64,000 nt of DNA, from IMG/VR virus record IMGVR_UViG_2897358383_000002; one strand, given 5' to 3'. Below are positions 62,715 to 63,552 of the stretch, piece after piece. Under the pieces are notes generated by a model, which saw nothing but the letters and a program-made list of their open reading frames with translations, had not been told where the DNA came from and made no database searches. This DNA comes from a virus (Duplodnaviria > Heunggongvirae > Uroviricota > Caudoviricetes). The translations under genes and the position numbers were made by a program. Each line of letters opens with the position of its first letter. Within the stretch, counting starts at the first letter, position 1.

Positions 62715-63524
62715 ATGCAAGAAGAGAAACAACACTACCTCTACGTTCTGGTGCCAGAGAACGGAGATACTTTTAAAATCGGCATTTCATGTGGTCCATT
62801 GGCACGGTTTAAAGGGCTACAAGTGAGTCCCGATTTTGCGCTTTCACGGGTCTATCGTGGTACGCGTTTGGCAATGGTTAATCTTGAGCGGGCTTTACAC
62901 GCAACCTTTTTCCCCTGGAATGCGCCGTGGGAGAAAAGCGTCGGTGGCGGGCATACTGAATGGTTTACACGAGAGTGTCTTGATAAGGTTTTGGCTCATA
63001 TCGAATATCTAAATGATATGTGGGGAGGGATTCTCGAGCGCATTAAGTCGAATGATTTACTTCAGCGTCCAGTAGATGCTGCTTGCTCTTTCGAAAAAGA
63101 GCTGGATGTTACTTCTATCGTGACTTTCAAAGATGACGCAGGAATGAGGGACGTGGCTTATGTCTCCATATCTGGCTATGAACCGGACGCGATCCGCGCT
63201 CAATGTGAATTGCTGAAAGCAATGTTTATGCTTCGGACTAAATATCCCTGGGATACAGGGCGGGTGTGCTTCCCTATGGAAGAGTTAACCGCCACCATTG
63301 ATTCCCAGCTTTACCACGATAATCCAGAGAAGTTTTTTAGCCTTTTAGCCGGTAATGGGCTTAACTGTGTGTCCGGGCTGGGGCGAAGTAGAATCCAACA
63401 TGCCTCGCTCTTCGGTCCCTTCTTTTACGATCGACACGGGTACTTTGAGGCTGAACTTCCGGCGCTTACGCGTGCTATAGATACTATCGATTTCGAACGA
63501 TTATTCGCTGCTCTTAGCAAATAA
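62715..63524 (+). CDS. GIY-YIG superfamily / T5orf172-like domain protein with C-terminal extension, 269 aa
   Basis: YLYVLVPENGDTFKIGIS ... GGGHTEWF motif pair; sits between incA iterons and parA promoter. Confidence 0.55.
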   Translation: MQEEKQHYLYVLVPENGDTFKIGISCGPLARFKGLQVSPDFALSRVYRGTRLAMVNLERALHATFFPWNAPWEKSVGGGHTEWFTRECLDKVLAHIEYLNDMWGGILERIKSNDLLQRPVDAACSFEKELDVTSIVTFKDDAGMRDVAYVSISGYEPDAIRAQCELLKAMFMLRTKYPWDTGRVCFPMEELTATIDSQLYHDNPEKFFSLLAGNGLNCVSGLGRSRIQHASLFGPFFYDRHGYFEAELPALTRAIDTIDFERLFAALSK

Positions 63525-63532
63525 CACTGATG

Positions 63533-63552
63533 CCCCTGAACGGGGCTTTTTT
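63533..63552 (+). terminator. rho-independent terminator gcccc-tgaac-ggggc + TTTTTT
   Basis: read directly. Confidence 0.7.

Follow-up and report, generated by a model that had tools for sequence, protein, structure and literature searches.

This analysis concerns a gene for a predicted free-standing endonuclease near the right end of a 64,000-nucleotide stretch of DNA (the window) from the IMG/VR record IMGVR_UViG_2897358383_000002, a P1-like phage-plasmid of the class Caudoviricetes. The open reading frame (ORF) begins with ATG, occupies positions 62715–63524 of the plus strand and encodes 269 amino acids (aa). A sequence-only reading of the locus had described an ORF of this length, with its own terminator, between the incA iterons and the par operon, and this arrangement is indeed present: the terminator hairpin lies at 63532–63552 and the parA ATG at 63694.

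The replicon module of the nuclease gene

The nuclease gene is the final element of a replicon module and stands between replication and partition genes. The window is 97.9% identical to P1 (NC_005856) up to position 61340 and 99% identical from 63591 onward, and the sole segment that cannot be aligned with P1 is 61341–63590. These 2250 bp replace 1491 bp of P1, comprising the incC iterons, repA, incA and a 170-bp spacer, and contain five origin iterons, an initiator gene (repA'), six control iterons and the nuclease gene with its terminator. Among P1-like phage-plasmids, this module is of the replicon type called p0111, for which the O111:H- plasmid NC_013370 is the naming reference. The replicon of P1-like elements is of either the IncY or the p0111 type, on backbones that are otherwise near-identical. 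The earlier proposal that the gene had been inserted between the repA–incA region and par of P1 therefore does not hold, because the replicon on its left is p0111-type, with an initiator 42% identical to P1 RepA, and the gene belongs to the swapped module. The features of the region are as follows.

61190–61340, no strand: left edge of the replicon-type-specific module, a diverged homologue of the left part of P1 oriR
61356–61456, plus strand: five direct origin iterons with the core TTGACTNNNNGCGA at about 21-bp spacing (repeat families D1–D3 and direct sequence reading)
61538–62422, plus strand: repA', a p0111-type Rep3/RepFIB-like initiator of 294 aa (Pfam and identity to P1 RepA)
62423–62684, no strand: six control iterons of the TTGACT....GCGA type in the incA position (repeat families D1, D2 and D5; inverted pairs I1–I25)
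62704–62708, plus strand: weak Shine-Dalgarno-like GTGGT, 6 nt 5' of the nuclease ATG
62715–63524, plus strand: nuclease ORF
62715–63029, plus strand: T5orf172 (GIY-YIG superfamily) nuclease domain, aa 1–105 (Pfam)
63030–63524, plus strand: fast-evolving C-terminal orphan domain (aa 106–269), putatively for DNA recognition, and stop codon
63532–63552, plus strand: intrinsic terminator serving the nuclease gene, GCCCC-TGAAC-GGGGC and then TTTTTTG (terminator scan)
63553–63590, no strand: module tail, ending at an abrupt right boundary (63590/63591) where P1 homology resumes
63591–64000, plus strand: P1 par promoter/operator and parA start, shared context outside the module (99% identical to P1)

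On the right, P1 homology restarts 19 bp 5' of the −35 element of Ppar, and 63591–64000 corresponds to positions 4998–5407 of P1 (L001), annotated as Ppar, the ParA operator and parA. This boundary, 66 bp after the nuclease stop codon, is sharp, since the first 1 kb beyond it contains no majority-base difference between 38 p0111-type and 7 IncY-type elements. On the left, the same comparison yields 27 near-fixed type-linked differences in the 150 bp before 61340 and none further left, and mismatches to P1 per 250 bp climb from 0 through 10 and 12 to 45 toward 61340. The backbone flanking the module recombines freely between the two replicon types. Beyond the left edge, divergence of the window from P1 climbs steeply over upfA (60592–61340). 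What occupies the upfA position, left of oriR, also varies: two IncY-type elements (L057, NZ_CP019075.1; L058, CP088508.1) carry a Gp49-family gene and another ORF there instead (2527–3358).

The repA' product matches Pfam Rep3_C at 27.1 bits and Rep3_N at 21.8 bits, just under the 22.4-bit cut-off of the latter, and database records label it a RepB-family/RepFIB initiator. Its control iterons comprise two direct copies (62423–62462) followed by four inverted copies (62542–62684), the last of which ends 30 bp before the nuclease ATG. This 2+4 layout is shared by two relatives that are informative throughout, namely L002, a diverged P1-like contig, and L049, a 91-kb contig (GCA_013513435.1, DABKFZ010000018.1) related to P1 by its PmgB, PmgC, PmgG and tube PHROGs. 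An additional iteron copy, TGTTGACTATAAGCGA, 94% identical to the origin iteron (family D2), lies within the repA' coding sequence at 62140–62155 and might be an internal RepA-binding site.

At the start of the nuclease gene, GTGGT is a candidate Shine-Dalgarno sequence; AGTGGT stands at a matching 5–6 nt spacing in the 44%-identical orthologue that L002 carries at the equivalent site. At the other end of the gene, RNA folding gives the terminator hairpin −11.9 kcal/mol (z = −2.45). Just 3' of the terminator, where the module ends on the right, lies a degenerate inverted iteron-like 15-mer, TCGTGCAAAATGAAC (63574–63588), with 11 of 15 positions matching TCGCGCATAGTCAAC (pair I2). If real, it would mean that iteron-like sequences flank the nuclease gene; the match may be a coincidence, with an estimated chance of about 2% per 100 bp.

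A T5orf172 domain joined to an orphan C-terminal half

The ORF is a real gene rather than a chance frame, as indicated by its wide conservation, the diverged orthologue at the matching site in L002 and a ratio of nonsynonymous to synonymous polymorphism (pN/pS) of 0.31. Homologues occur in about 400 PLSDB plasmids, every one with at least 90% protein identity, in 411 of 5426 complete E. coli genomes (7.6%) and in 44 IMG/VR contigs. The gene has been annotated before, as a "GIY-YIG nuclease family protein" in RefSeq, as a "T5orf172 domain-containing protein" in one phage record and as phrog_2876 in PHROGs, where its function is labeled unknown. One paper mentions it in passing, as an unknown gene co-occurring with repA', and a literature search found no functional study of it. 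New here are the exact boundaries of the module, the intact active site relative to a characterized nuclease, the orphan fast-evolving C-terminal domain, the separability of the gene from its replicon, its rate of decay and the population-level mutual exclusion of the replicon types.

The GIY-YIG/T5orf172 signature that the sequence-only reading recognized at the N-terminus was confirmed. The motifs YLYVLV (aa 8–13), KIGIS (aa 21–25) and GGGHTEWF (aa 77–84) are present, and Pfam T5orf172 (PF10544, GIY-YIG clan) matches aa 8–85 with E = 6.9e-6 and 26.9 bits, where the gathering cut-off is 20; the L002 orthologue scores 28 bits. For the sister family MUG113 the window protein reaches 15.3, below the cut-off of 22.3, and the L002 orthologue 23.0, above it. 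In PHROGs, phrog_2876 covers the whole protein, and a distant match to phrog_681, "endonuclease", was found at 7e-9. No NCBIfam profile matched the window protein, and no PDB chain matched by sequence even at E ≤ 10. Phage T5orf172 proteins are marginally similar in sequence (tblastn E of at least 0.01), and matches in phage genomes are weak and confined to the N-terminal domain.

The window protein and its L002 orthologue were aligned with ICP1 Gp121 and with Odn (ICP1 Gp88/ORF88), an origin-directed nuclease that is, in the literature consulted, the sole T5orf172 protein with biochemically demonstrated nuclease activity and that is inactive as the E180A mutant (Barth et al. 2021, PMC8263062). 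Eleven residues are invariant among the four proteins (Y8, L9, Y10, K21, G23, S25, R31, L35, E58, E82 and F84), E58 aligns with Odn E180, and none of the invariant residues varies across 29 natural alleles of the gene. As judged from this alignment, the GIY-YIG catalytic set of Tyr, Arg and Glu (Y8/Y10, R31, E58) is intact. The ORF product is best described as a putative free-standing endonuclease with two domains, assigned to the T5orf172 branch of the GIY-YIG superfamily and with predicted nuclease activity.

The remainder of the protein has a different character. The sequence-only reading had left some 150 C-terminal residues unassigned, which agrees with the searches: a profile of the two orthologues, run exhaustively against 1.84 billion representative proteins, returned only fragments of its own family for the C-terminal 165 aa, and Pfam gave nothing for this half at E ≤ 1. 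Between the window protein and the L002 orthologue, the N-terminal domain is 61% identical and the C-terminal domain 32%, and nucleotide similarity ends exactly at the domain border, at 63028. This lineage-specific, fast-evolving half most likely supplies DNA recognition. If its binding to DNA were confirmed, it would constitute a new DNA-recognition module.

What such a domain might recognize bears on whether the protein acts in defense. Odn likewise has a T5orf172 domain, in which the catalytic Arg and Glu are shared, and in both cases the nuclease is tied to a replicon and its iterons. On that model, the C-terminal domain would recognize non-sibling DNA, such as the iterons or origin of RepFIB-family plasmids that are co-resident in the cell, a satellite or the DNA of an incoming phage, and the carrier would benefit from its destruction by the T5orf172 domain. 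We consider this unlikely. The DNA-binding half of Odn is an N-terminal RepA_N/DUF6945 domain copied from the initiator of its target, and Odn matches DUF6945 in Pfam at 4.9e-35; in contrast, the window protein showed no Rep, RepA_N or DUF6945 match in Pfam at E ≤ 1, and hhalign against a 22-sequence Rep family gave a probability of 0.2–0.3%. Resemblance to the folds of Rep WH1 and RepE was non-significant, as were the fold matches from the predicted structures, which are poor models with a predicted local distance difference test (pLDDT) score of 50–55. PADLOC-DB v2 returned no families at E ≤ 1, and about 18% of natural copies of the gene are disrupted, as described below. The interpretation offered in the sequence-only reading, a homing-endonuclease-like selfish gene or a nuclease-based defense or exclusion gene, is partly supported.

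Linkage, separability and decay of the gene

The order of flank, replicon, nuclease gene, terminator and par is identical in 45 of 45 related p0111-type loci, and among complete E. coli genomes 411 have the gene and about 408 have RepA' at 90% identity or more, the two co-occurring at a ratio near 1:1. It is nevertheless not a universally conserved backbone gene of P1-like replicons, a possibility that the sequence-only reading had put forward for checking by synteny. IncY-type P1-like elements, with flanks over 97% identical, lack it, as does the L049-type replicon; each absence coincides with a different replicon or context. L049 (4710–6120) has an 85%-identical RepA' and the 2+4 control iterons without the nuclease gene. 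Its similarity to the window extends about 25 bp beyond the last iteron and halts just 5' of the Shine-Dalgarno-like motif and ATG of the nuclease gene. The L049 replicon is placed between pmgB-like and tail-tube/pmgC-like genes, not beside par; evidently the replicon module has changed its place in the gene order of P1-like elements. In PLSDB, no nuclease homologue was found beside thousands of more distant RepFIB replicons. In a separate observation, the chromosome record of an E. coli ST2747 strain (L061, NZ_CP007393.1, 2210455–2223264) contains the dam methyltransferase gene, rdgC, repA', the nuclease gene, parAB and the genes after them; related ST2747 assemblies likewise place a P1-like region in the chromosome record. 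Either a P1-like prophage has integrated there or the placement is an artefact of assembly.

The gene is frequently damaged. It is disrupted in 8 of the 44 assessable loci (about 18%) and intact in about 82%. The disruptions comprise three independent nonsense alleles, W68*, S112* (in L026, 97,897 bp) and Q228* (in L021, 103,445 bp), and one insertion of the IS200/605 type. The last lies in L044 (IMGVR_UViG_2645727563_000002, 5295–6828), where an IS200/IS605-type element of about 1.5 kb interrupts the gene after nucleotide 294 and encodes a 389-aa TnpB with OrfB_IS605 and Cas12f1-like TNB domains. An IS1 insertion occurs in the gene in the complete genome NZ_CP100998.1, and about 6 of 40 sampled complete-genome entries show split or partial annotation. 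Its pN/pS of 0.31, from the 29 alleles, compares with 0.02 for repA. Together, the disruptions, the difference in pN/pS and the existence of the 85%-identical L049 replicon without the gene identify it as accessory; it is not a core component of the p0111/RepFIB-like replicon or of the replication machinery.

Such decay raises the question of whether the gene is a functionless relic, that is, a once-active homing endonuclease gene that became fixed beside the replicon, lost its targets and is drifting toward loss. The multiple independent nonsense and insertion disruptions, the constraint relaxed relative to neighboring genes and the divergence between the two lineages are in keeping with this history; backbone proteins of L002 and P1 are 49–89% identical, RepA' of L002 is 84% and ParA 89% identical to their counterparts, and the nuclease is the least conserved protein of the neighborhood. 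We nevertheless judge it quite unlikely. The pN/pS value remains well below 1, most copies are intact, and the orthologues have retained a full-length ORF, the catalytic residues and invariant blocks in both domains despite saturating divergence. The Shine-Dalgarno-like motif and the terminator hairpin are likewise kept in both the window and L002.

The tight linkage also invites a regulatory explanation, in which the protein would be a domesticated DNA-binding regulator that binds the control iterons or Ppar and tunes copy number, handcuffing or partition without cutting. Linkage of the gene to the replicon module is strict in each of two diverged P1-like lineages, and the gene lies directly between the control iterons and Ppar. 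It is probably co-transcribed or co-repressed with repA', given that it starts 30 bp past the last iteron and that no promoter or terminator was detected between them. A precedent exists in CapR of PLE (a Vibrio element resembling phage-inducible chromosomal islands), a T5orf172-related protein domesticated as a repressor that acts through a Zn-finger CxxC...CxC domain (PMC10448857), which illustrates that relatives of T5orf172 homing endonuclease genes (HEGs) can persist as pure DNA-binding regulators. Unlike CapR, however, the window protein has no CxxC...CxC motif and has kept its catalytic Arg and Glu. Furthermore, conservation between the lineages is high for the iterons and for RepA, whereas the presumed recognition domain is only 32% identical, which would be unexpected if it read those sites. 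The L049 replicon exists without the gene, natural disruptions are common in apparently stable plasmids, including the 97,897-bp L026, and repA is far more constrained. A purely regulatory role is accordingly very unlikely in our view.

Possible action against sibling phage-plasmids

The gene product is most likely a selfish or competition nuclease and not part of the replication machinery. A homing-endonuclease-like interpretation is favored because the catalytic domain is intact, the second domain evolves fast, the gene is a stand-alone unit between essential maintenance genes, it sits at a boundary of exchange and it decays frequently. Phage T5orf172 HEGs are known to lie at boundaries of genetic exchange and, in "HEG-islands", to border essential cargo (Barth, Dunham & Seed 2023, PMC10448857). 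Those of ICP1 (Gp53, Gp121 and Gp130), T5-like phages and Vibrio phages share with the window protein the Pfam nuclease domain with its YLY, KxG, R, E and ExF elements. As with these HEGs, the window gene is stand-alone, intergenic and adjacent to essential functions at an exchange boundary, decays by stop codons and insertions, and has a nuclease half and a second half that diverge at unequal rates.

The order of the domains provides a further point of comparison. In ICP1 Gp121 and Odn the nuclease domain is C-terminal, whereas in the window protein it is N-terminal. In I-TevI and the Seg proteins of phage T4, a GIY-YIG-type catalytic domain at the N-terminus precedes a DNA-binding region at the C-terminus. 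The T4 seg genes are free-standing and intergenic; in mixed infections they cause localized marker exclusion and co-convert the genes that flank them. The window protein resembles these T4 proteins in having its catalytic domain first, with a putative DNA-binding role for the C-terminal part; unlike them, it belongs to the T5orf172 subfamily rather than PF01541, and sequence similarity to them is undetectable.

We tentatively propose that the nuclease cuts P1-like DNA that lacks the gene and thereby promotes the loss or conversion of the rival, an action to which we give somewhat less than an even chance. The enzyme would work in the manner of free-standing HEGs, for example the seg genes of T4 and the T5orf172 genes of ICP1. 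When a p0111-type element meets a gene-less IncY-type P1-like element, the DNA of the rival would be cut in or near the junction of replicon and par. The cut rival would then be lost, or be repaired from the nuclease-carrying element, and either outcome would favor inheritance of the nuclease gene and its linked replicon module. The proposed target, like any effect through homing or exclusion, is putative.

Several observations weigh against this proposal. No empty site was found within p0111-type P1-like elements, either in the 45 loci or in the genome counts (411 versus about 408), so that any mobility of the gene independent of the replicon would be putative in the p0111 lineage; in this the gene differs from phage T5orf172 HEGs, as it does in residing in a temperate phage-plasmid beside a plasmid replicon. 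The association is old, and long-term vertical retention fits at least as well as ongoing homing. Four-gamete analysis of a 6.4-kb region indicated pervasive recombination with no excess at the gene, and a promoter scan found no promoter for it. Moreover, the Zn-finger modules CapR, DUF723 and DUF4397, which occur in 87% of phage T5orf172 HEGs (PMC10448857), were not detected by Pfam in the window protein, which instead carries the orphan 165-aa domain. No recognizable DNA-binding module was identified, and the structure models are poor.

The distribution of the two replicon types is also relevant. Among complete E. coli genomes, IncY repA occurs in 359 and RepA' in 414, with a union of 771. 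Co-residence of IncY and p0111 was observed in 2 genomes, compared with about 27 expected, and no single record contained both. This count could have contradicted exclusion by the nuclease and did not. Near-absent co-residence is, however, only compatible with the model and is not evidence for it, because shared par incompatibility, immunity and superinfection exclusion predict the same pattern.

A more far-reaching version of the homing idea treats the p0111 module itself as a "HEG-island" with the whole replication and incompatibility cassette as its cargo, which we regard as doubtful. The T5orf172 nuclease would cut IncY-type P1-like DNA near the incA/Ppar junction, and repair would copy the nuclease gene together with the origin iterons, repA' and the control iterons. 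If this were true, a homing endonuclease would drive incompatibility-group switching in phage-plasmids, which would help to explain the roughly half-and-half population split and the near-absent co-residence of the replicon types.

P1-like phage-plasmids are common, and they are increasingly noted as carriers of extended-spectrum β-lactamase (ESBL) and other resistance genes (PMC9603915, PMC6906374). Should the nuclease have no action of the proposed kind, it would be one more accessory GIY-YIG-type gene. If it does cut rivals, replicon replacement and exclusion among sibling phage-plasmids would gain a mechanism, and the idea of nuclease genes at boundaries of exchange would extend from lytic phages to plasmid maintenance modules.
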